This document shows, piece after piece, positions 1 through 6,356 of a DNA stretch of 6,356 nucleotides. The notes beneath the pieces are model-generated. The model saw nothing but the letters and a program-made list of their open reading frames with translations, did no database searches and was not told where the DNA came from. Location of the stretch: positions 1 through 6,356 of IMG/VR virus record IMGVR_UViG_3300045988_023818. The stretch is one strand, 5' to 3'. Both the position numbers and the translations under genes were made by a program. The stretch comes from a virus. How positions within the stretch are numbered: position 1 is the first letter of the stretch; every line of letters starts with the position of its first letter.

Positions 1-55
1 AAGGAAGGCAAATAGGTTCCAAGAGAAAGACTATGTGTCAAAGACAACGCTTGAA
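1..55. repeat. Terminal redundancy copy A, identical to 6302-6356. This is a circular-permutation or assembly overlap.
   Basis: Base-by-base comparison: aaggaaggcaaataggttccaagagaaagactatgtgtcaaagacaacgcttgaa occurs at 1-55 and at 6302-6356. The repeat runs to the window end, so its true length is not bounded. Confidence 0.95.
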
Positions 56-353
56 TCTGATTAATGTCCTGCATCTGAGTCAATACAGAAGGCGCAGATT
101 TCCAAAGAAGACGCAACGGCACAGCATAGAAATCAAAATACTCACGAAGACGAGTATAAGCAGACGTTTCAACCGGCTGAGTACGGGTAAAATACTCAAT
201 GTTAAACTTATACTTATCACCGGGCATCGAAATATCCCAGTAAACAGGAAGAAGCTCACCAACCTTTGCGGTAAACGCATTTTTACGTCCAATATCAAAA
301 CCAGAACGGTGAGGATGGTTCTGGAGATTGGACATTCCAGTGTAAGAAGCCAT
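1..353 (-). CDS. Major capsid protein (Microviridae VP1/F-like), N-terminal segment. It continues across the circular junction into 6301..4792.
   Basis: Minus-strand ATG at 353 (cat at 351-353). Hand translation gives MASYTGMSNLQNHPHRSGFDIGRKNAFTAKVGELLPVYWDISMPGDKYKFNIEYFTRTQPVETSAYTRLREYFDFYAVPLRLLWKSAPS..., which carries the conserved N-terminal signature of Microviridae capsid proteins (RSGFD..FTAK.GELLPV..PGD). The frame is continuous with ORF 4792..6348 when 6302-6356 is overlaid on 1-55. The total is 353 + 1510 = 1863 nt, or 620 aa plus stop. Confidence 0.93.
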   Translation of the reverse strand, partial: MASYTGMSNLQNHPHRSGFDIGRKNAFTAKVGELLPVYWDISMPGDKYKFNIEYFTRTQPVETSAYTRLREYFDFYAVPLRLLWKSAPSVLTQMQDINQIQALSLTHSLSLGTYLPS

Positions 354-362
354 AAAAAAAAA
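354..362 (-). promoter_or_regulatory. T9 homopolymer (A9 on the plus strand) directly abutting the VP1 start codon. Probably an unstructured U-rich translation leader.
   Basis: The minus strand reads CTATTTTTTTTTATG. No Shine-Dalgarno motif lies between the VP4 stop (383-385) and the VP1 ATG (353). Confidence 0.35.
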
Positions 363-379
363 TAGTTAAGGTTTAAGTA

Positions 380-395
380 TTATCAATCTTGATAA
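380..395. repeat. Inverted repeat TTATCAA-tc-TTGATAA overlapping the VP4 stop codon.
   Basis: ttatcaa (380-386) and ttgataa (389-395) are exact reverse complements separated by 2 nt. The VP4 TGA corresponds to tca at 383-385. Confidence 0.7.
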
Positions 396-2065
396 GAAAA
401 GATACCAGACAAGTCATTAAGCTTCTTGTGCTTGACCTTATCCCGACACTTCATAAGTGACGCGGCAGCCAAACGACGAACAAGAGGCAATTGCTTATAA
501 GGTGTTTCCTCATCAAGAACAGTTTTATCATAACGGAAGGAGTAGTTCCGAAGCTCCATATCAAGTAAATCTTTATCATCAGAATCTTCCAAAGTCTGAT
601 AAAAATCAACAAGACGGGAATAATCGTAACGACGCCAAAAATCTACTATCTTCTCGGAGAAGACTCGTAAAAATCTCTCTCGGCCGCTGGCATATTCTCC
701 AAGTCCGAAGACGGGTGTGCCATCCGATACGTACATTCGTAAACTTTTCGCAATTCCGAGAAAAAAGCGGTATAATCGGGCTATGCGATGAACACTTTCC
801 AAATCGACACCATCATACAAACGACATTCAGACAAAATGAGAATATCACTATGCGGGAGATTTTCCTTAGGTGAAAGAACATTTCTTTCGTCATTTCGTT
901 TTCCATAATTGTCTACATAATTTAAATACTGTTTACAAAAAGATAATATACTTTGTTTGGAAGAGTTATTCCAAGGGTCACAATCTAAACCACCGCATCC
1001 GCTATGAATGACTCGTAAGGGCGCTGTGAACGCAGCAGATAATAACTGGTAAACGTTCGATGGAGATTGACGAATAGCGTCTGAAAATCTGGGGAATACT
1101 CGAAGGAGATACGACCATGAAGGCTTAATCGTGCGAAAAAAGCCATCGCGCTCAATGCTGACTCCATTAAGGCACTTATCGGCAACTTCGTCAATTTCGG
1201 TAATTTGTACCGTTTGAGGAAAGAGATTTGACTCTGTAAATCCAATGGAATGGAAGGATTTAGGTCGCACCACTTTTGGCATCTGAGTATAAAAGTCGGG
1301 TAAAGCGACAAAACTATTAACATACGACGCAACATACGGAGCTGCGAATCCTCGCGACAATGATGCATCACAACGTCCGTAAGACCATGCCTTAGATACA
1401 TTTTCAAGAACAGTTTCCGAGAATCGTTCGGAATTGGAAAACAGTAACAGATGCCAATGCGGGCGGAAACTTGTAGGGCCGTATTCTGATACAGCGTAAT
1501 AACGTAATTTTTCATCTGGATAATAACTGCGTAAACGTTTTAAAAATAAGTCAAGATCACGATTACAAACATAAGGTATTCTATTTGGAACAGGATACTT
1601 AATTTTGCCAAGAATAGCCAACAAATCCTTCGGATACATAGGGTAGGAGAAACGAACCTCTGGATCTTTAAAAGTACGTTCAACCGTAGAATTCTTCAAA
1701 CGGAGAGAAGCGGAACGAGGAACGCTGCGAAAACCAAACAGATAACGATTAGAGTCACAAGCGTCCAAGTTATCAATATCGGGAACGCAGGATACATCCG
1801 CAACATCATCCGTACAATTTTCAACAATCTCAACCTGTAATGTAGGCAAAAAACAATTAGCATAAGTAAGAGTAACAAAATAGACAAAACGGAATTGAGA
1901 AGAATAAGAAGTAAGCAAGTTAGTCTGAATACCCGAACGACGGAGAATACAAGAAGGGCATTGACCACAAGAAACCAAAACGGGTTCATGGGTGTACTTA
2001 TTGATAACCGTACGAGGGTTCTGACAACGAGTCACTAACTTATTCTGCAATTCCTTGGTAATCAT
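383..2065 (-). CDS. Rolling-circle replication initiator (Microviridae VP4 / phiX174 A-like HUH endonuclease).
   Basis: 560-aa ORF. Motif I is FVTLTY. The HUH motif is RPHWHLLLF, with CAT TGG CAT verified at 1459..1451. The two-tyrosine motif is APYVASYVNS, with Y codons verified at 1336..1334 and 1324..1322, and it closely resembles my recollection of the phiX174 A catalytic-tyrosine motif (YVAKYV). An N-terminal CGQCPSC Cys cluster is typical of the family. The start overlaps the upstream gene's stop as ATGA (2065..2062). Confidence 0.93.
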   Translation of the reverse strand: MITKELQNKLVTRCQNPRTVINKYTHEPVLVSCGQCPSCILRRSGIQTNLLTSYSSQFRFVYFVTLTYANCFLPTLQVEIVENCTDDVADVSCVPDIDNLDACDSNRYLFGFRSVPRSASLRLKNSTVERTFKDPEVRFSYPMYPKDLLAILGKIKYPVPNRIPYVCNRDLDLFLKRLRSYYPDEKLRYYAVSEYGPTSFRPHWHLLLFSNSERFSETVLENVSKAWSYGRCDASLSRGFAAPYVASYVNSFVALPDFYTQMPKVVRPKSFHSIGFTESNLFPQTVQITEIDEVADKCLNGVSIERDGFFRTIKPSWSYLLRVFPRFSDAIRQSPSNVYQLLSAAFTAPLRVIHSGCGGLDCDPWNNSSKQSILSFCKQYLNYVDNYGKRNDERNVLSPKENLPHSDILILSECRLYDGVDLESVHRIARLYRFFLGIAKSLRMYVSDGTPVFGLGEYASGRERFLRVFSEKIVDFWRRYDYSRLVDFYQTLEDSDDKDLLDMELRNYSFRYDKTVLDEETPYKQLPLVRRLAAASLMKCRDKVKHKKLNDLSGIFSYQD

Positions 2066-2370
2066 TTTCTATCAGTAAAATCTAATTCCATAAGGCGAGG
2101 CTTACGGAGACGAGTAAAAGAAATATGAACAAAAGTGCGATACTTTATAAGCTGGTCGAATTCAAATCCGGAATCCTTGACTTTCAGAATAAAACTATCT
2201 AACGAAAAATCAAGAGGTTTCAAATCAATAGCATCTCCAGTCAAGTGTTGAGAGTTTTTAGAACCTCCGCATGCTTTATTTTCAGAATCAGTACGAAAGG
2301 CGGAAGTAACAGTAAACTTAACATTATTCCGAAGAAGCCATTCAACAAACTTCATTAACTTGGCATTCAT
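2062..2370 (-). CDS. Zn-dependent peptidase, M15 family (Peptidase_M15_3 / M15A-like cell-wall hydrolase). Candidate endolysin.
   Basis: 102-aa ORF. SAFRTDSENKACGGSKNSQHLTGDAIDL matches the S-x-[FY]-R...N...GG...S-x-H-x6-D metal-binding signature. H42 is CAC at 2247..2245 and D49 is GAT at 2226..2224. The distal FVHIS histidine, H82, is CAT at 2127..2125. No obvious signal peptide is present. The gene is coupled to VP4 through the ATGA overlap. Confidence 0.85.
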   Translation of the reverse strand: MNAKLMKFVEWLLRNNVKFTVTSAFRTDSENKACGGSKNSQHLTGDAIDLKPLDFSLDSFILKVKDSGFEFDQLIKYRTFVHISFTRLRKPRLMELDFTDRK

Positions 2371-2373
2371 GAC

Positions 2374-2463
2374 CTACGGAAACATCTGAGCAATAGACGT
2401 AAGAAGACTAACAGCAGCTGCAATAATTGCAGACCAGATCTTAGATTTAGTTTCACTTTTCAT
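2374..2463 (-). CDS. Possible 29-aa single-pass membrane peptide (MKSETKSKIWSAIIAAAVSLLTSIAQMFP). Candidate holin-like or lysis accessory peptide.
   Basis: ATG at 2463..2461 and TAG at 2376..2374, 3 nt upstream of the peptidase ATG (2370). It has a charged N-terminus followed by a hydrophobic segment of about 20 residues. By hand count, 16 of 29 codons end in T, like the bona fide phage genes. It fills what would otherwise be a 79-nt gap in a very compact genome. It is the C-terminal part of track ORF 2374..2562. Confidence 0.35.
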   Translation of the reverse strand: MKSETKSKIWSAIIAAAVSLLTSIAQMFP

Positions 2464-2647
2464 CAGAAATTGGCTTAAAAGTTGAACACTGGGAAAGAAT
2501 AATAACACAATCGGGATGAAGATTAGAAGAAACAAACTCAGAAACTTCATCAACTGAAACAAGAACGGTCTCGTTCTGATTAGGATTAACCTTTGACTGG
2601 ATAGAACACAAATAATACTTTTCCATAATCAAAATAAATTTTATCAT
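2453..2647 (-). CDS. Hypothetical protein, 64 aa, or 57 aa if translation starts at the ATG at 2626.
   Basis: It is the first ORF after the large intergenic region and has the same orientation as all other genes. By hand count, 37 of 64 codons end in T (GTT, TCT, AAT, CTT, GAT), matching VP1 codon usage. I recognise no family motif. Confidence 0.55.
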   Translation of the reverse strand: MIKFILIMEKYYLCSIQSKVNPNQNETVLVSVDEVSEFVSSNLHPDCVIILSQCSTFKPISDEK

Positions 2648-2657
2648 TAAACAAAGG

Positions 2658-2665
2658 CAAATATA
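2658..2665 (-). promoter_or_regulatory. Candidate Bacteroidota-type -7 promoter box (TATATTTG, which fits TAnnTTTG).
   Basis: Plus-strand caaatata at 2658-2665 reads TATATTTG on the minus strand. This sits just upstream of the first gene of the minus-strand gene block. I could not find a clean -33 TTTG partner. Confidence 0.3.
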
Positions 2666-2707
2666 TAGGGAAAGTTCAATATGTAGAGAATGTTAATATA
2701 AGAAATA

Positions 2708-2718
2708 ACATTTATAAA
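2708..2718. repeat. Direct repeat copy 1 of ACATTTATAAA.
   Basis: The same exact 11-mer occurs at 2748-2758, 40 bp away, in the AT-rich half of the intergenic region. Confidence 0.8.
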
Positions 2719-2747
2719 CGCAAAACAGTTGTAATTAACAAAATAAT

Positions 2748-2761
2748 ACATTTATAAATGT
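2748..2761. repeat. Perfect 14-bp palindrome ACATTTATAAATGT, which contains direct repeat copy 2.
   Basis: The sequence at 2748-2761 equals its own reverse complement. Its first 11 nt repeat 2708-2718. Confidence 0.85.
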
Positions 2762-2810
2762 GATAAATATGAAGGTCTGTGAGTTTACGTATATAAGACA
2801 AGAAAGGTAT

Positions 2811-2835
2811 GAAAGCGATGAGGTAAATCGCTTTC
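2811..2835. other. Hairpin with a 9-bp perfect stem, GAAAGCGAT / ATCGCTTTC, and a 7-nt loop.
   Basis: 2811-2819 is the exact reverse complement of 2827-2835. The loop is gaggtaa (2820-2826). Confidence 0.75.
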
Positions 2836-2843
2836 CCTTCGGG
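2835..2843. other. Mini-hairpin CCC-TTC-GGG, which reads CCC-GAA-GGG on the minus strand.
   Basis: cccttcggg lies at 2835-2843. It can extend through TTT/AAA (2832-2834 with 2845-2847). It overlaps the 3' arm of the 2811-2835 hairpin. Confidence 0.65.
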
Positions 2844-2855
2844 TAAACTCATGTA

Positions 2856-2864
2856 GGCTTCGCC
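2856..2864. other. Mini-hairpin GGC-TTC-GCC, which contains GCGAAGC on the minus strand.
   Basis: ggcttcgcc lies at 2856-2864, with a 3-bp stem and a 3-nt loop. Confidence 0.6.
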
Positions 2865-2898
2865 AATATCCAGAGACTTTAAAGTATTCTGATTTTTT

Positions 2899-2915
2899 TG
2901 CTCGCGGTGCTCGCG
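2899..2915. repeat. Tandem direct repeat TGCTCGCG-g-TGCTCGCG.
   Basis: The exact 8-mer occurs at 2899-2906 and 2908-2915. Its CGCG cores can also pair with each other (2903-2906 with 2912-2915). Confidence 0.75.
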
Positions 2916-2936
2916 CGTTCTTCACTGCGTTCATCA

Positions 2937-2977
2937 CTTAGACGATCCTTCTTCCTTCGGACTTGGATCGTTTTAAG
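2937..2977. other. Extended hairpin: CGATCC/GGATCG stem with flanking CTTA/TAAG pairing, capped by TCC-TTC-GGA.
   Basis: 2943-2948 is the exact reverse complement of 2965-2970. 2937-2940 pairs with 2974-2977. The apical tccttcgga lies at 2953-2961. Confidence 0.65.
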
Positions 2978-2994
2978 TAAATCGGCCAAATGGG

Positions 2995-3006
2995 GTCGCA
3001 AGCGAC
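2995..3006. other. Hairpin GTCG-CAAG-CGAC.
   Basis: A 4-bp stem (2995-2998 with 3003-3006) and a 4-nt loop, flanked by G4 runs. Confidence 0.5.
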
Positions 3007-3092
3007 AGGGGTGTTTAGGGGAGCAGTTACTTTTAAAAAGGAGAGGGAAGGAAGCTGCTATTCCGTTCGTTAAGGAAGGGAAGATGAACCCT

Positions 3093-3103
3093 ATGCTTCG
3101 CAT
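3093..3103. other. Mini-hairpin ATGC-TTC-GCAT, which contains GCGAAGC on the minus strand.
   Basis: atgcttcgcat lies at 3093-3103, with a 4-bp stem and a 3-nt loop. Confidence 0.6.
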
Positions 3104-3117
3104 CACATTTCAGTCAT

Positions 3118-3138
3118 ACTTCCCGAAATGTGGGAAGT
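3118..3138. other. Hairpin with a 7-bp perfect stem, ACTTCCC / GGGAAGT, and a 7-nt loop.
   Basis: 3118-3124 is the exact reverse complement of 3132-3138. The loop is gaaatgt. Confidence 0.75.
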
Positions 3139-3141
3139 GTA

Positions 3142-3162
3142 TAACCACGCTTCGCGCGGTTA
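3142..3162. other. Hairpin TAACC-a-CGC-TTC-GCG-c-GGTTA, with a GCGAAGC core on the minus strand.
   Basis: It has 8 Watson-Crick pairs. The single A/C mismatch (3147/3157) on the plus strand becomes a G-T (G-U) wobble on the minus strand, giving 9 contiguous pairs there. Confidence 0.7.
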
Positions 3163-3183
3163 CCAGAAATTACTCCAAACAGC

Positions 3184-3213
3184 AAAACCCGACGCGCATT
3201 ACTGCGAGCCGGG
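3184..3213 (-). terminator. Candidate rho-independent terminator downstream of VP2, ending the minus-strand gene block.
   Basis: The minus strand reads CCCGGCTCGC-AGTAAT-GCGCGTCGGG followed by TTTTGCTGTTTGG. The stem has 8 Watson-Crick pairs, 1 G-U and 1 mismatch. It begins 30 nt after the VP2 stop. The mismatch pattern pairs better on the minus strand than on the plus strand. Confidence 0.45.
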
Positions 3214-3242
3214 TAAAACAACAATGAAAAACAAACAATTAT

Positions 3243-4304
3243 CTACCAGGGTAAAAAATTACCTATAGTATTACCAATAGCCGTACCGTAAGAAACAGCT
3301 TTATCAGAATCGTAGTACTTGTATTTCTTACCTTCATTACGAGAGCGATACCAATCCTCAATACTACGAGAACGAGCACGCTCACGATTATATTTAGAGG
3401 CTTCAAGTTCATACTCTGCATTCGAATTATTAGCAGCATTAGATGAACGAATAAGAGAATCAGCAGTAGACTCAGCAACCTTATTGCTAATTCTCTGACC
3501 TTTAGCACGGGCATAAGTCAAGACCTCATCAGCAAGAACCTTCTTTGCCTGGTTATAATTCAAATGACCGTGAGACATCTGATTATAATACTCGGCAGCT
3601 TTCGTACTTAAGTCAGCCTGCTGTTGCTGATCAAGATACTTATTCAAGACTGTCTTTGCCTCTGCATCAAGCAAGGACATTGTACCTTGGGCTTGAAGTA
3701 AACGACCTGCAAAAGCCATATTATCAAGTTCCTGCATCTCTTTAGAATAACCAAGCTGGGCACGAGCCAAGCCAGTAGCCTTCAAATACTCACGGGTCTC
3801 TTTAGTCATTTTAGACCAATCGACATTAGAAAGAGCCTGCATAGCCTGGGCATCCGCAAGATTTTTCTGACCTTGTAACTGAGATACCTGGGCTTGCTGA
3901 ACTTGAGACTGAAAAACAGAGCCTATAGATTGAGAAATACCAGAATAATCAGCCTGGAAAGGTTGCATCTGAGCATTACCAGAAGAAGAAGCAGTAGCAC
4001 CGGTGCCAACGGAACCAGCGGCACCAGCAGAACCACCATTCATCATCAGATAAGGATTTAAACCAGCTTCCTCGAGACGTTGGCGTTGGGCAGAAGCAGT
4101 GTTATAGGCATTTTCCTTATTCCACATATCTTCCTGCCAGTTACGCTGCTGTATTGCCATACGCTCGTTAAACTGGTTATTCATCTGATTTATCTTATAA
4201 TTCATTTGGTTGGTTTCACGGACAGACTGGGCATTCTGAGCATTCTGCATCGCAGAAGATCCAGCACTGAACAATCCACCAACCAAAGAACCAAAAAGTC
4301 CCAT
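3243..4304 (-). CDS. Minor capsid / DNA pilot protein (Microviridae VP2 / H-like).
   Basis: 353-aa ORF. It has a Gly-rich N-terminus (MGLFGSLVGGLF), a Q/N-rich coiled region, the family-typical RQRLEEAGLNPYLMM motif (AGLNP), and a Gly/Ala/Ser-rich linker. Its start overlaps the upstream stop as TAATG (4306..4302). Confidence 0.87.
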   Translation of the reverse strand: MGLFGSLVGGLFSAGSSAMQNAQNAQSVRETNQMNYKINQMNNQFNERMAIQQRNWQEDMWNKENAYNTASAQRQRLEEAGLNPYLMMNGGSAGAAGSVGTGATASSSGNAQMQPFQADYSGISQSIGSVFQSQVQQAQVSQLQGQKNLADAQAMQALSNVDWSKMTKETREYLKATGLARAQLGYSKEMQELDNMAFAGRLLQAQGTMSLLDAEAKTVLNKYLDQQQQADLSTKAAEYYNQMSHGHLNYNQAKKVLADEVLTYARAKGQRISNKVAESTADSLIRSSNAANNSNAEYELEASKYNRERARSRSIEDWYRSRNEGKKYKYYDSDKAVSYGTAIGNTIGNFLPW

Positions 4305-4780
4305 TACTCAGAAGAGGCGGAAGAATCGACAGCAGCAACCTCTTCCACTTTTTGTTTAGCATTCTCGGCTTCAATTAAAGATCGAGCTTCACGTTCAAGA
4401 ACTTCAGCATGAGCAGCAAGTTCTTTCGACCAAGCAATAATCTCAGAAGGAGACTGGACATGTCGAGAACGAACTGTCGCCAAAAGGTCGTCATCAGACA
4501 TCTTATCCATAATTTGCTGAATCTGAGAAGAAGAATTACGGCTCTGGCCAAACTTAGAAGCAATAGACAAACCAGCACGAGAAGCCAAGTCCTTAGTATG
4601 GAGAATTAAACGAACATCAGACGTATAACGAACGGGACGAGTCTCATCCGTTTCGTCAATTTCAACACGGAGTTCTTCCGTAGAATCAAACTCGGGTGCA
4701 ACAGAAAAAGTATCGGGAGAAACATCAGGAACTAATAATTCCTGGTTTTCAACAGGGTTTAAAGTAGAAAATACAGCCAT
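4304..4780 (-). CDS. Acidic hypothetical protein, 158 aa. Its position and composition fit an internal scaffolding (VP3-like) protein.
   Basis: The track ORF begins at a TTG (4789). The first ATG is at 4780 (cat at 4778-4780), 11 nt after the VP1 stop, giving MAVFSTLNPVENQ.... The protein is D/E-rich, shares the codon bias of its neighbours, and sits between the capsid and pilot genes. The functional call rests on synteny only. Confidence 0.75.
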   Translation of the reverse strand: MAVFSTLNPVENQELLVPDVSPDTFSVAPEFDSTEELRVEIDETDETRPVRYTSDVRLILHTKDLASRAGLSIASKFGQSRNSSSQIQQIMDKMSDDDLLATVRSRHVQSPSEIIAWSKELAAHAEVLEREARSLIEAENAKQKVEEVAAVDSSASSE

Positions 4781-4791
4781 AACAAACAATA

Positions 4792-6356
4792 TTAATAAGG
4801 TACACCATCACGAGACAAGTTACGAGCAACGTAACAACCAATATAAGAGTTAACCAACAACTGGTCTGAATCCCAGGTAGAATCGGCCTTAACGCCGAAA
4901 ATAGGGTCAAGTACAGAAGGATTAACCTTAAAAAACTTATAATTCAAAACAACACGAGTATTCTTATCAACATCACCTTCTTCATATCCATGAACAAACC
5001 ATCCGGAAAGAAGAGACTCAGTAACAGGAGAAACCCAAGATTTTTGAGTAGTAGTAAACGCACCATTGACAACGTCAAGCTTGGTTTTCCAGTTGAAATA
5101 ACGAGGATTATAACCAGCATTAAACAGGTTAACGATAGAAGCCTTAGGAGAATTGAATATCTGAGTCATAGGGAGAGCCTCCATACCAATGTTGTCAAAT
5201 TCCGGAATAGGAAGAGACTCAGCATCAGTTACAAGTAATTGGCCATCTTGTCCAGTAATCGTATAATCAAGCAAAGGAACGGCATGATAAATACACATAA
5301 CAACACAATGTTCATTAGTTGTATAAGTAAATGAACCATTACCAGCACCAACACCCTTACCAGCAATTATAGCGGAATCACCAGCACCAGCAAGATTGCT
5401 GTTTACAACCTCACTGATGTCAAGATTGCGAGAAATACCACCAATATAGGTACACATATTGGAAAGAGCTTGAGGCAAGTTCACACCAAAATGTTTACGA
5501 ATCTGCTCACGATAATCAGAATCACCGGACTGAGAGATCTCTTTCCAACGTTGAAGGGCCTCGGCTTGACGAAGAGCGAGAACAGTAAATTGACCCTGCA
5601 AACGAGAAAGGTCAACTTGAAGAGAAGAACCAGCAGCAATAATATTAGAAGTAGAAGCATCCTTAGCCGCGAAAGATATCGGAGTAAGAGGAGCATTATA
5701 AGAACCAGTAGTAATAACTTCAGAAGAAGCATCACCACTTGGACTCTTTAAAAATACAGAAGAAGGGATAGAACCCTCAGTATTTGAAATATTAATCACA
5801 GCAACATCGCCAAACTGAGAATTCGGAAGAATACCCATCAGCATATCCTTATTCCAATTACAATATCTGAGGTCGAACATTGTAGGGGATTTCCAATAAG
5901 AAGAAGAGGCATCGGGAGTAACCTCAATAAAATTAGGAGAAACACCGGAATAATAATCAACATTATAAGAAGACGGGTTCGAATTTTCCCACTGAGACCA
6001 GCGGAAAAAATCTTGATAAATCTTCTGGTAAGCCAATAAAGGAAAAACATTTACATAATTGTTCTGAATATATAGTTGAGTATAATCAGAAGATTTTCCG
6101 GAATTTTTCAAAGAAGTAGACCACCAACGATTATCAGAAGAGGGGGCGGTATCAATTATATTACCATATCCAAGATAGCTTAACAATTTATAAGACAAAT
6201 CAGAACGGGAAAAACCAAAAGGATTTCTATAAGAAGAAGAACCCGGAGAAGGAGAATTCCCATTCAGTCGGAAAAGAATAGTAGACAACTGAGAAAGATT
6301 CAAGGAAGGCAAATAGGTTCCAAGAGAAAGACTATGTGTCAAAGACAACGCTTGAA
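4792..6356 (-). CDS. Major capsid protein (VP1/F-like), remaining C-terminal part. The frame is open to the window edge, and 6302-6356 duplicates 1-55.
   Basis: The frame is open from 4792 (TAA at 4792-4794) to the window end. It contains the family-typical stretch FTVLALRQAEALQRWKE and strongly T-ending codons. The track's M at 6348 is an internal Met, not the true start. Confidence 0.93.
   Translation of the reverse strand, partial: QALSLTHSLSLGTYLPSLNLSQLSTILFRLNGNSPSPGSSSYRNPFGFSRSDLSYKLLSYLGYGNIIDTAPSSDNRWWSTSLKNSGKSSDYTQLYIQNNYVNVFPLLAYQKIYQDFFRWSQWENSNPSSYNVDYYSGVSPNFIEVTPDASSSYWKSPTMFDLRYCNWNKDMLMGILPNSQFGDVAVINISNTEGSIPSSVFLKSPSGDASSEVITTGSYNAPLTPISFAAKDASTSNIIAAGSSLQVDLSRLQGQFTVLALRQAEALQRWKEISQSGDSDYREQIRKHFGVNLPQALSNMCTYIGGISRNLDISEVVNSNLAGAGDSAIIAGKGVGAGNGSFTYTTNEHCVVMCIYHAVPLLDYTITGQDGQLLVTDAESLPIPEFDNIGMEALPMTQIFNSPKASIVNLFNAGYNPRYFNWKTKLDVVNGAFTTTQKSWVSPVTESLLSGWFVHGYEEGDVDKNTRVVLNYKFFKVNPSVLDPIFGVKADSTWDSDQLLVNSYIGCYVARNLSRDGVPY
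6302..6356. repeat. Terminal redundancy copy B, identical to 1-55.
   Basis: Same exact 55-nt match. It implies a unit genome length of 6301 nt. Confidence 0.95.

Follow-up and report, generated by a model that had tools for sequence, protein, structure and literature searches.

Why does a circular microvirus genome, in which every gene lies on one strand, keep five copies of the same small hairpin in a non-coding gap behind its pilot gene? The genome in question is the window, by which we mean the whole 6,356-nt stretch that was analysed (IMG/VR record IMGVR_UViG_3300045988_023818, positions 1 to 6,356); coordinates are those of its plus strand, and all genes are on its T-rich minus strand. 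Microviridae package the strand with mRNA polarity. With every gene on the window minus strand, that strand should be the packaged (viral) one, an assignment made from the Microviridae rule and the gene strand. Relatives of this virus integrate into Bacteroides chromosomes, and the genome yielded no dedicated primase gene.

A first-pass annotation of the window had reported five CTTCG mini-hairpins with complementary flanks, three of them reading GCGAAGC on the gene-sense strand, and this description was exact. CTTCG starts at 2837, 2858, 2955, 3096 and 3150, and each copy is enclosed by at least three contiguous Watson–Crick pairs (3, 3, 3, 4 and 3 in that order, C-G pair included), with spans identical to those first given (Table 1). 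GCTTCGC is found at 2857, 3095 and 3149 and nowhere else in the genome, and only two further copies of CTTCG exist in the remainder of the 6.3 kb. Shuffled controls had been proposed as a check on enrichment. When 2767-3236 was shuffled with dinucleotides preserved, the counts averaged 0.65 for CTTCG, 0.04 for hairpinned CTTCG and 0.04 for GCTTCGC, and the observed counts of 5, 5 and 3 were matched by 0/5000 of them; moreover, five CTTCG copies inside 322 nt were seen in 0/2000 whole-genome shuffles.

All five hairpins are held by a non-coding element at ∼2773-3176, which is ∼340-470 nt long and is bordered by a terminator-like hairpin behind the pilot gene on one side and by a Bacteroides-type promoter box on the other.

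Table 1. Features of the intergenic element and its flanks (window plus-strand coordinates; hairpins 1-5 in viral-strand letters)
Feature	Position	Strand	Details
Bacteroides-type -7 promoter box	2658-2665	-	TATATTTG; upstream of small ORFs, peptidase gene and Rep
dif-like attachment site	2675-2700		TTCAATATGTAGAGAATGTTAATATA; borders the element, outside the hairpin array
5′ domain	2773-2867	-	hairpin 2 + three-way junction, 95 nt; first in plus-strand order, last part on the viral strand
Junction helix P2	2780-2787 with 2844-2851	-	three-way junction arm
CTTGYC	2797-2802	-	invariant; single-stranded joiner of the junction
Junction helix P3	2812-2819 with 2827-2834	-	loop TTACCTC
Hairpin 1	2835-2843	-	CCC-GAA-GGG; three-way junction arm
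Hairpin 2	2856-2864	-	GGC-GAA-GCC
Insert, ∼130 nt	2867-2999	-	subset of relatives only; carries hairpin 3
Hairpin 3	2953-2961	-	TCC-GAA-GGA; tops stem 2942-2948/2966-2972
GTCG-CTTG-CGAC hairpin	2995-3006	-	continuation of the ∼130-nt insert
Middle domain	3000-3092	-	variable
Hairpin 4	3093-3103	-	ATGC-GAA-GCAT; GCC-loop-GGC in most relatives
Hairpin Pb	3104-3111 with 3125-3132	-	CACATTTC with GAAATGTG (plus-strand letters)
Hairpin 5	3143-3161	-	AACCGCGC-GAA-GCGTGGTT; 8 pairs, c(GNA)g triloop; mini-hairpin span 3148-3156
Terminator-like hairpin	3177-3225	-	stem 3188-3213, loop GTAA, tail TTTTGCTGTTT

Neither of two open reading frames, 2898-3227 (+) and 2879-3106 (-), matches Pfam; a coding role for them was rejected on this ground, on the presence or absence of the ∼130-nt insert among relatives and on the covariation of the helices. 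At least one database record annotates a hypothetical protein over the element sequence.

The first-pass annotation had also pointed to two larger stems that pair better on the minus strand, where the plus-strand A/C mismatches at 3147/3157 and 3192/3209 become G.T. The mismatches are there and so is the gain in pairing, and the 3157/3147 wobble is a conserved part of hairpin 5, but for the stem at 3188-3213 a plain transcription terminator is the better reading, as predicted from its features: a G+C-rich hairpin, which includes the 3192/3209 G.T pair, with a U-run tail (UUUUGCUGUUU), immediately past the stop codon of the pilot gene (3243). Its RNA fold has −22.1 kcal/mol (z −3.98). Hairpin and T run are kept in relatives, with loop GTGA in 46/56 and 52 G.T against 1 A.C on the minus strand; in one relative (L019) the terminator loop is flipped. 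A simple terminator scan missed 3177-3225 owing to the internal mismatch, and a sigma-70-type promoter scan returned no more than chance.

The element starts ∼15 nt after this hairpin. At its other side, 2658-2665 matches the -7 box consensus of Bacteroides promoters; TAnnTTTG occurs only once in 2300-3300 on both strands, with no copy within 2770-3260, and six GenBank relatives share the underlying CAAATATAT. At the level of a consensus prediction, this promoter-like box is the downstream limit of an apparently untranscribed gap. The P2 arm, whose majority sequence TGAGTTTG resembles the -7 box, was considered as an M13-like promoter mimic and rejected; other clades have TCATTTTT, TAATTTTT or TCATTTAT there.

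Is the element under selection, and for what? Nucleotide identity is 89% in the 5′ domain and 84% in the 3′ domain as against 72-82% in the genes, i.e. the element is conserved more strongly than any gene. A covariance model of the 5′ domain matches 75/80 capsid-related loci, once per genome and always on the gene strand. Among 14 representatives, pairing holds in 99.7% of cells and compensatory changes occur at 14/22 pairs; for 80 distinct sequences the values are 98.9% and 20/22, which was matched by 0/500 shuffles. Compensatory changes are also seen in the stems of hairpins 2, 3, 4 and Pb, those of hairpin 4 covarying between TGC/GCA and GCC/GGC, and once in hairpin 5 (C-G to T-A), whose shape and wobble a distant clade retains. 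Pb has one covarying pair (T-A 31, C-G 24) and conserved viral-strand G.T pairs. Conservation in the same intergenic place, another check first proposed, extends to a clade further away that escaped the sequence search (L104-L108), in which four viral-strand mini-hairpins are present, two of them with the same 21-22-nt spacing.

Not all parts are equally constant. The ∼130-nt insert is present in the window and four relatives (L001, L019, L023 and L039) and partial in L021; its long stem covaries (CGATCC/GGATCG, CGATTC/GAATCG, CGGTTC/GAACCG), and the loop of hairpin 3 is GAA or GTA. In the middle domain the window group is unlike the majority of relatives, and alignment folding of 3000-3092 gave no consensus fold; its candidate helices have wobbles almost exclusively on the viral strand, e.g. 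46 A.C and 0 G.T in plus-strand terms for ACGC/GCGT. Whole-element consensus folding and averaged pair probabilities recovered only the outer helices, and covariation scans allowing A.C or G.T were discarded, as nearly any transition-variable column pair looked paired in them. Two further pairings were rejected: a pseudoknot of 3118-3123 in the Pb loop with 3133-3138, which looks plausible on inspection of the window group but lacks support in most relatives, and a local stem GTCT/AGAC (2776-2779 with 2797-2800), invariant in close relatives and lost in distant clades.

The loops carry the most specific pattern. On the viral strand, they were of the expected form in 52/56 relatives for hairpin 1 (GNA), 56/56 for hairpin 2, 54/56 for hairpin 4 (G..A) and 55/59 for hairpin 5, counts that come from related sequences and so do not represent independent events. 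In the model alignment hairpin 1 has GAA 52, GGA 11 and GTA 8 times, and hairpin 2 has GAA in 74/82, GAAA in 3, GCA in 2 and GTA in 1. Hairpin 4 in 56 relatives has GTTA 26, GTCA 9, GCCA 6, GTA 5, GAA 5, GTAA 2 and GCAA 1, and hairpin 5, in a metagenome set unselected on this hairpin, has GTA 34, GAA 19 and GCA 1. The closing pair is C-G in 79/80, 54/56 and 56/56 for hairpins 1, 4 and 5, and for hairpin 2 it is C-G 70 and U-A 9 times. Hence the first G and last A of the loop and the 5′-C...G-3′ closing pair are fixed while the middle bases are free, as in the DNA mini-hairpin motif, where a sheared G.A pair in c(GNA)g or c(GNNA)g makes even a 3-bp stem unusually stable. Hirao's d(GCGNAGC)/d(GCGNNAGC) occurs in three exact GCGAAGC copies on the viral strand, and all five window hairpins are c(GAA)g, though the stems CCC..GGG and TCC..GGA depart from the canonical GC..GC. 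The loop variants of the relatives (GGA, GTA, GCA, GAAA, GTTA, GTCA, GCCA, GCAA, GTAA) are those of the published permissive set, and the published order of preference, A > G > others, is shared.

The register of the loop bears on a plus-strand reading, in which the element would be an antisense RNA with cUUCGg-type tetraloops. Two of the five sites do fit C-UUCG-G, the number first reported, and the hairpin-1 variants TTCG, TCCG and TACG are all UNCG; the other three sites cannot form cUUCGg. The closing and outer pairs change in a compensatory manner that suits a triloop and not a UUCG tetraloop (CCT-TCC-AGG, TCC-TCC-GGA and TGC-GAA-GCA in L110). Read on the plus strand the loops would be U-N(N)-C, which is no known motif, no Bacteroides-type box was found within 2770-3260, and, as seen below, the helices would be burdened with A.C mismatches. 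We regard an antisense RNA, which the strand test contradicts, as very improbable.

The side on which wobble pairs form distinguishes the two strands. In conserved helices we counted 117 G.T against 2 A.C on the viral strand, again in related and hence non-independent sequences, so that the mismatches would fall on the plus strand. The 3147/3157 wobble of hairpin 5 is G.T in 55/56 relatives, and in the metagenome set this position is G.T 56, A-T 2 and G-C 1 times. Exceptions are G.T on the plus strand in hairpin 2 of two relatives (L045 and L046) and 3 cells among the candidate helices of the middle domain. Thermodynamic folding gave no clear separation of the strands (z −3.46 versus −2.63 as DNA, −3.57 versus −3.10 as RNA), with DNA energy models that omit the special stability of mini-hairpins. 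From compensatory changes, loop pattern and wobble side in ∼80 relatives, we favour the viral (minus) strand as the structured one, in agreement with the triloop and minus-strand reading of the first-pass annotation.

The strand evidence suits a gene-sense RNA equally well as viral-strand DNA. Such an RNA could belong to the capsid-scaffold-pilot transcript as a structured 3′ end or read-through part, could lead the downstream operon, or could be a non-coding RNA of its own, with GNRA-like loops; the terminator loop (GTAA/GTGA) and the tetraloops of L104-L108 (GAAA, GCAA, GTAA) are indeed compatible with GNRA, the three-way junction with its conserved loop and joiner resembles a folded RNA, and read-through of the terminator is conceivable. 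However, a purine at the third loop base, as GNRA has, is not the rule in hairpin 4: in the metagenome set 32/33 of its tetraloops are G..A, of which 30 are GNYA and 2 GNRA. Because the commonest tetraloops, GTTA, GTCA and GCCA, are not GNRA, the DNA motif fits better. Among GCNNNGC fragments only GNA gives the DNA mini-hairpin, with GTTA accepted as a tetraloop, and r(GCGAAAGC) melts at 39 °C compared with 76.5 °C for the DNA form (PMC13037366). Scored as RNA, hairpins 1-4 reach just −0.6 to −2.5 kcal/mol and do not outperform shuffled sequence; the 3-bp triloop hairpins would be marginal in that form, yet they are invariant across clades. The position past the terminator-like hairpin, in a gap free of Bacteroides-type boxes on either strand, also speaks against a sense RNA. 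A search of Rfam 15 on both strands with E up to 1 gave one chance-level match (E 0.59), inside the Rep gene and none in the element, and a tRNA/tmRNA scan gave nothing relevant. We therefore consider a sense RNA unlikely; the loops fit the DNA mini-hairpin motif, and a DNA-level structure, as first proposed, is favoured over RNA on the sequence pattern.

Taken as DNA, the element would fold in single-stranded form on the packaged gene-sense strand into a 95-nt three-way junction plus 4-5 c(GNA)g/c(GNNA)g hairpins. What such a fold might do is suggested by precedent, since the motif itself is a structural building block and not a function. The first-pass annotation mentioned related motifs near phage replication origins, and in kind this was right: mini-hairpins are present at the priming sites of G4, St-1 and alpha3 and within ssiA of RSF1010, and their affinity for single-strand-binding protein is low (PMC13037366). 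The G4 record bears this out, with CGGC-GAAA-GCCG situated within the annotated ‘RNA primer of replication’, adjoining the complementary-strand origin. The mini-hairpin is GCGAAAGC in G4 and GCGTTAGC in St-1 and alpha3, and the GTTA loop of the latter is also the commonest hairpin-4 loop in our element. These origins, like the element, are non-coding intergenic sets of hairpins on the packaged microvirus strand with a DNA mini-hairpin; a non-coding, viral-strand region of stable hairpins including a mini-hairpin is what characterizes the G4 type, a feature known here from the sequence. The element differs in its 4-5 mini-hairpins, where those origins have one, in its three-way junction and in its length (340-470 nt against ∼135 nt), and it belongs to a different host phylum (Bacteroidota) and viral lineage. 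The best score of the 5′-domain model (R1) in G4 was 7.8 bits (E 2.4), away from the origin, and does not indicate homology; likewise, the CS-6-like TAGCGW of ssoA does not occur in the element, its single genome copy being at 1075 inside the Rep gene. The likeness to the G4 oric and ssoA is thus one of presumed function only, without sequence similarity.

Plasmid and other phage signals offer a comparable picture. RSF1010 ssiA has a CCGAAGG mini-hairpin, a heptamer of the class to which hairpin 1 (CCCGAAGGG) belongs. Like the element, ssiA, the origins of ssoA type and the filamentous-phage minus-strand origin are orientation-specific, highly folded non-coding DNA of comparable size, and they work only as single strand. 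Reekeekee- and roodoodooviruses, uncultured microviruses known from metagenomes, have conserved intergenic hairpins with compensatory changes, proposed and as yet unproven as minus-strand initiation sites (PMC9865509). Those are one or two simple hairpins, whereas the present element is multi-domain, with a defined loop motif, strand-specific wobbles and a much larger comparative set. Plasmid records had no similarity to the element, a pattern search of bacterial genomes gave no matches, and no phage outside the clade of the window matched the element region.

On this combination of comparative evidence and precedent, we infer, with a little better than even confidence, that the element is a single-strand (complementary-strand) replication origin of the microvirus. 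In this mechanism the incoming single-stranded genome would be coated by host single-strand-binding protein, while the mini-hairpins would remain folded and largely clear of it. One of the host priming systems (primase, PriA primosome or RNA polymerase) might then recognise the exposed fold and make a primer, from which the complementary strand would be synthesised, so that the element would act like the complementary-strand origins of G4, St-1 and alpha3 and the ssi/sso signals of plasmids.

The invariant joiner of the junction raises the question of a viral-strand (plus) origin. CTTGYC is unpaired, is present in 77/82 copies of the 5′ domain, occurs once in the genome, is followed by AT-rich sequence, and loosely resembles the phiX174 site, CTTG/ATATTAAT. 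Rep might nick and rejoin there, with the hairpins serving for Rep binding or rolling-circle termination. Rep works on the viral strand, which matches the strand asymmetry, and a search allowing up to 3 mismatches placed no phiX-type origin (CAACTTGATATTAATAAC) anywhere in the genome. Against this, the resemblance to the phiX origin amounts to four bases, a 95-nt junction with 300 nt of hairpins far exceeds known microvirus Rep sites and is more like single-strand origins, extrusion of the fold from the double-stranded replicative form is unlikely, and the precedent for mini-hairpins is at priming sites and not at Rep nick sites; besides, both functions could share one intergenic region, as in filamentous phages. 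We consider it doubtful that the 5′ domain or the whole element is a plus-strand origin, and hold slightly less to it than to a sense RNA.

Other roles for the folded DNA were suggested by its neighbourhood. By comparing the junction of an integrated relative (L182) with an empty site in Bacteroides rodentium (L280), we located a dif-like site ∼75 nt from the 5′ domain, and the L182 contig points to a lysogen related closely to B. rodentium; published work agrees with dif-like attachment, and some Bacteroidetes proviruses resemble CTX phage (PMC3091885). The single-stranded genome might therefore fold for Xer/dif integration in a CTX phage-like manner. However, no second, inverted dif-like copy able to fold against 2675-2700 was found, the hairpins contain no dif-like sequence, and distant clades keep the 5′ domain and not the AT-rich flank. 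The other such role, a packaging or condensation signal, had been suggested in the first-pass annotation, and we saw no specific support for it; microvirus packaging is coupled to replication and has no known packaging site. Either role seems quite unlikely to us.

Between the complementary-strand origin that we prefer and the Rep site, there is also a combined possibility. The three-way junction may be an RNA-like DNA fold for both replication steps, with CTTGYC as the site of Rep nicking and rejoining, the array, expected to withstand single-strand-binding protein, recruiting the Bacteroides priming enzyme, and the dif-like site belonging to the same compact replication and integration module. 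We offer this only as a tentative idea with a small chance of being correct; if true, it would be the first covariation-defined single-strand origin in Bacteroidota phages.

Support for the DNA mini-hairpin motif had come chiefly from biophysics, along with a small number of cases in phages and plasmids. Here, stems drift and the loop centres change, yet G..A persists on the strand that exists as single-stranded DNA, which provides natural comparative evidence of selection on the motif. With the covariance model, ‘empty’ stretches of several hundred nucleotides can be annotated in many genomes of microviruses, and a working single-strand origin, if the reading is true, would be useful for Bacteroides ssDNA vectors. 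The human gut is reportedly rich in Alpavirinae-like microviruses (PMC9865509), and the element is a concrete, testable candidate for the start of the complementary strand in such viruses.

The window is a circular genome of ~6301 nt with a 55-nt terminal redundancy (1-55 repeated at 6302-6356), and its minus strand holds every large ORF. The encoded proteins are an F-type capsid protein, a scaffold protein, a pilot protein, an M15 peptidase and a rolling-circle Rep protein; the capsid gene (4792-6348) crosses the circle junction and continues to ~354, with an ATG near 354 on the minus strand. Gut microviruses, among them bajarodmic virus 1134 and Dulem viruses 236 and 257, are the nearest GenBank records, at ~84% identity. 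Microviridae package the strand of mRNA polarity, and since all genes are on the minus strand, this strand was taken as the viral strand; it is T-rich, matching expectation. The hairpins lie in 2648-3242, the sole long stretch of the window without a credible coding ORF, which is flanked by the pilot gene and by small ORFs preceding the peptidase and Rep genes. In Dulem virus 257 a hypothetical protein (XCD03224.1) is annotated over the structured element, and this gene call is probably spurious, given helix covariation and insert polymorphism. Two compared contigs were unusual: L168 (1345-5211) carries an ORF of 1288 aa that matches the capsid protein at its end, as might result from a fusion, an insertion or a chimeric assembly, and L123 (9968 nt, whole contig) joins more than one genome unit head to tail in a single assembly.

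The genome contains seven copies of CTTCG, five of them inside 2835-3156, and at all five clustered sites (hairpins 1-5) the TTC loop is flanked by at least three contiguous Watson-Crick pairs, exactly with the positions and flank lengths given in the first-pass annotation. GCTTCGC occurs three times, never outside the hairpin region. The enrichment that the annotation had asked to be compared with shuffled sequence was clear: dinucleotide-preserving shuffles of the element gave means of 0.65 CTTCG, 0.04 hairpinned CTTCG and 0.04 GCTTCGC, the observed counts were reached by 0/5000 of them, and five CTTCG within 322 nt were found in 0/2000 whole-genome shuffles.

The hairpin region is also kept in related microviruses from GenBank, IMG/VR and metagenomes. 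Copies were collected by an exact-pattern scan of IMG/VR (43 contigs), a capsid-based search independent of the element (80 loci), a looser pattern scan, which gave further copies, and a metagenome scan seeded with the 5′ part only (108 contigs). The usual length is ~343 nt, and the window and a few other copies have an extra insert of ~130 nt. Compared with the window, the median nucleotide identity reaches 89% in the 5′ domain and 84% in the 3′ domain, against 72-82% in protein genes. No match for the element was found in Rfam with both strands of the window, and no publication on it was found in the literature searched, whose coverage was incomplete.

Features of the element and its surroundings (window positions unless a related locus is named)
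Feature	Location	Description
dif-like attachment site	2675-2700	adjoins element
TAnnTTTG match	2665-2658	just upstream of next ORFs
5′ domain	2773-2867	three-way junction
P3 loop	2820-2826	
Hairpin 1	2835	
Hairpin 2	2856	
Hairpin 3	2953-2961	caps long insert stem; stem covaries in the five relatives having the insert
Middle part	3000-3092	no resolved fold from alignment analyses
Hairpin 4	3093-3103	stem TGC/GCA or GCC/GGC
Hairpin Pb	3104-3132	one cleanly covarying pair (T-A 31, C-G 24)
Hairpin 5	3143-3161	eight pairs, G.T at 3157/3147
GGAGTAA	3170-3176	conserved
Terminator-like hairpin	3177-3225	stem 3188-3213
Tandem 5′ domains	L093 6265-6467, gene strand	second copy degraded
Second mini-hairpin pair	L104 3383-3402; L105 5161-5180; L106 3243-3262; L108 3112-3131	viral strand
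Filled site	L182 ~5800-5980	prophage end TCCAATATCGTCAGAATGTTTAATATAAAT
Empty site	L280 ~4130-4220	TTCAATATCAGCATTATGTTTAATATA
CRISPR spacer	L188 ~5510-5545	32 nt spanning hairpins 1 and 2
Annotated XCD03224.1	L002 1511-1714	Dulem virus 257

The 5′ domain is retained in clades with capsids only ~50% identical. In viral-strand order, hairpin 2 (GGC-GAA-GCC) is followed by four unpaired bases and helix P2, then by hairpin 1 (CCC-GAA-GGG) and helix P3 with the conserved loop TTACCTC, and a joiner of ~25 nt with an invariant CTTGYC leads to the return strand of P2. The sequences of both helices are replaced clade by clade, P2 being TGAGTTTA/TAAACTCA, TCATTTTT/AAAAATGA, TAATTTTT/AAAAATTA or TCATTTAT/ATAAATGA and P3 being AAAGCGAT/ATCGCTTT, TAATTACT/AGTAATTA, CTTTGAAT/ATTCAAAG or TTTTCGG/CCGAAAA. 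Among 14 representatives, 99.7% of cells were paired with both-side changes in 14 of the 22 pairs, and pairing fell below 50% when the partner was shifted by one column. This alignment served to build a covariance model, which matched 75 of the 80 capsid-related loci, on the gene strand every time and in a single copy per genome except for L093; the five loci without a match are contigs of 4.0-5.3 kb, compared with genomes of ~6.3 kb. For 80 distinct model matches, 98.9% of cells were paired and 20/22 pairs were compensatory, in an alignment that was fitted to the model and is therefore biased toward structure; an independent MAFFT alignment agrees with it, and no shuffle equals the 80-sequence alignment on any measure.

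Further features were seen in and around this domain. The second tandem copy in L093 (35.6 vs 93.7 bits) carries a T.G in hairpin 1, and its hairpin 2 contains a mismatch. The P3 loop is near-invariant across clades and resembles the anti-Shine–Dalgarno end of 16S rRNA, and the conserved GGAGTAA comes after the terminator T run; pairing between these two was imperfect, with no covariation by eye. In L104, L105, L106 and L108, from a clade missed by sequence search and with a module order unlike the window, a second mini-hairpin pair lies upstream of the 5′ domain, at a distance of ~110 nt, and consists of CGGC-GGA/GTA-GCCG and then a stem that resembles hairpin 5 and shares its G.T.

Loops, register and wobbles agree on which strand folds. 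On the viral strand, the loop is GAA, GGA or GTA in 52 of 56 copies of hairpin 1, GAA or GTA in 56/56 of hairpin 2, G..A in 54/56 of hairpin 4 (GTTA 26, GTCA 9, GCCA 6, GTA 5, GAA 5, GTAA 2, GCAA 1) and G..A in 55/59 of hairpin 5 (54 GNA and one GAAA, in a set not selected on hairpin 5). The first G and last A are kept, whereas copies differ in the middle bases and even in loop length; L110 has a wholly replaced hairpin 1 stem (TGC/GCA) with the GAA loop retained. Compensatory changes at the closing and outer pairs match a three-base loop, not a UUCG tetraloop. Moreover, the two A/C mismatches named in the annotation are present, and among consensus helices in the 3′ half viral-strand G.T cells outnumber A.C cells by 117 to 2, counts that come from related and hence non-independent sequences. 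The hairpin-5 wobble position is G.T in 56 copies, A-T in 2 and G-C in 1; the terminal hairpin has 52 vs 1 in the same direction, and a few opposite-direction cells occur in L045 and L046. This asymmetry is large and seen in several helices, which supports the viral strand as the structured one.

Because sense RNA is identical in sequence to viral-strand DNA, the strand evidence does not separate them. A sense-strand RNA element is one of the two main rivals to an origin. Only GNA among all GCNNNGC fragments makes a mini-hairpin (stability A > G > C > T), G..A tetraloops, GTTA among them, are tolerated, and r(GCGAAAGC) melts at 39 C vs 76.5 C for the DNA (Kimoto and Hirao, PMC13037366). In the independent metagenome set, 30 of 32 G..A tetraloops of hairpin 4 have a pyrimidine at the third position, which departs from RNA GNRA and fits the DNA motif; tetraloops of the L104-L108 clade are GNRA-compatible and would allow RNA. 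Scored as RNA, hairpins 1-4 reach only −0.6 to −2.5 kcal/mol, not better than shuffled sequence, yet they rank among the most conserved features. Directly 3′ of the pilot stop codon, a sense-strand hairpin of −22 kcal/mol followed by UUUUGCUGUUU is kept in relatives. The Bacteroides-type −7 box consensus is TAnnTTTG, which has a single match within 2300-3300. With these two flanking it, the element appears to sit between a predicted terminator and the next predicted promoter, at consensus level, a position that also counts against RNA. Hence the RNA alternative is weakened, and DNA triloop hairpins on the packaged strand, as the annotation had proposed, are supported by loops, register, wobbles and the DNA-type loop motif. 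The terminator-like hairpin of L019 has its loop and inner stem inverted against all other copies, with GTGA read on the plus rather than the viral strand, so that the tip looks flipped.

A 34.8-kb contig (L182) contains an integrated relative that adjoins a universal-stress-protein gene; the encoded protein is 100% identical to its counterpart in Bacteroides rodentium JCM 16496. Comparison of filled and empty sites placed the junction at a dif-like sequence, consistent with Krupovic and Forterre (PMC3091885), and the pattern fits Xer-mediated integration. The product identity and this comparison therefore make Bacteroides a host genus. Moreover, a type I-C CRISPR array (repeat GTTTCAATCCACACACCTACATGAGGTGTGAC) in contig ODKV01003099.1 (L188), adjoining cas3, cas5d, csd1, cas7, cas4, cas1 and a 96-aa ORF in the cas2 position, carries a spacer that matches hairpins 1 and 2, so a bacterium has gained immunity to this non-coding element.

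Mini-hairpins, with c(GNA)g or c(GNNA)g loops, are found where complementary-strand priming takes place in G4 (GCGAAAGC) and in St-1 and alpha3 (GCGTTAGC), RSF1010 ssiA carries CCGAAGG, and such hairpins are bound poorly by single-strand-binding protein (PMC13037366). A control scan of G4 for intergenic viral-strand c(GNNA)g hairpins of three or more pairs gave a single one, CGGC-GAAA-GCCG at 3979, which falls within the annotated ‘RNA primer of replication’, beside the annotated complementary-strand origin. The two systems share motif class, strand and kind of location, but no sequence or covariance-model similarity to the element was found in G4, nor any similarity in plasmids or to ssoA motifs, and the element is larger and contains a three-way junction as well as four to five mini-hairpins. 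For other uncultured microviruses, conserved intergenic hairpins have been suggested, without proof, to be initiation sites (PMC9865509). The other main rival, that the conserved CTTGYC is a Rep nick site, is compatible with a coexisting origin role. From analogy and position, the most likely function of the element would be that of a single-strand (complementary-strand) origin in these microviruses.
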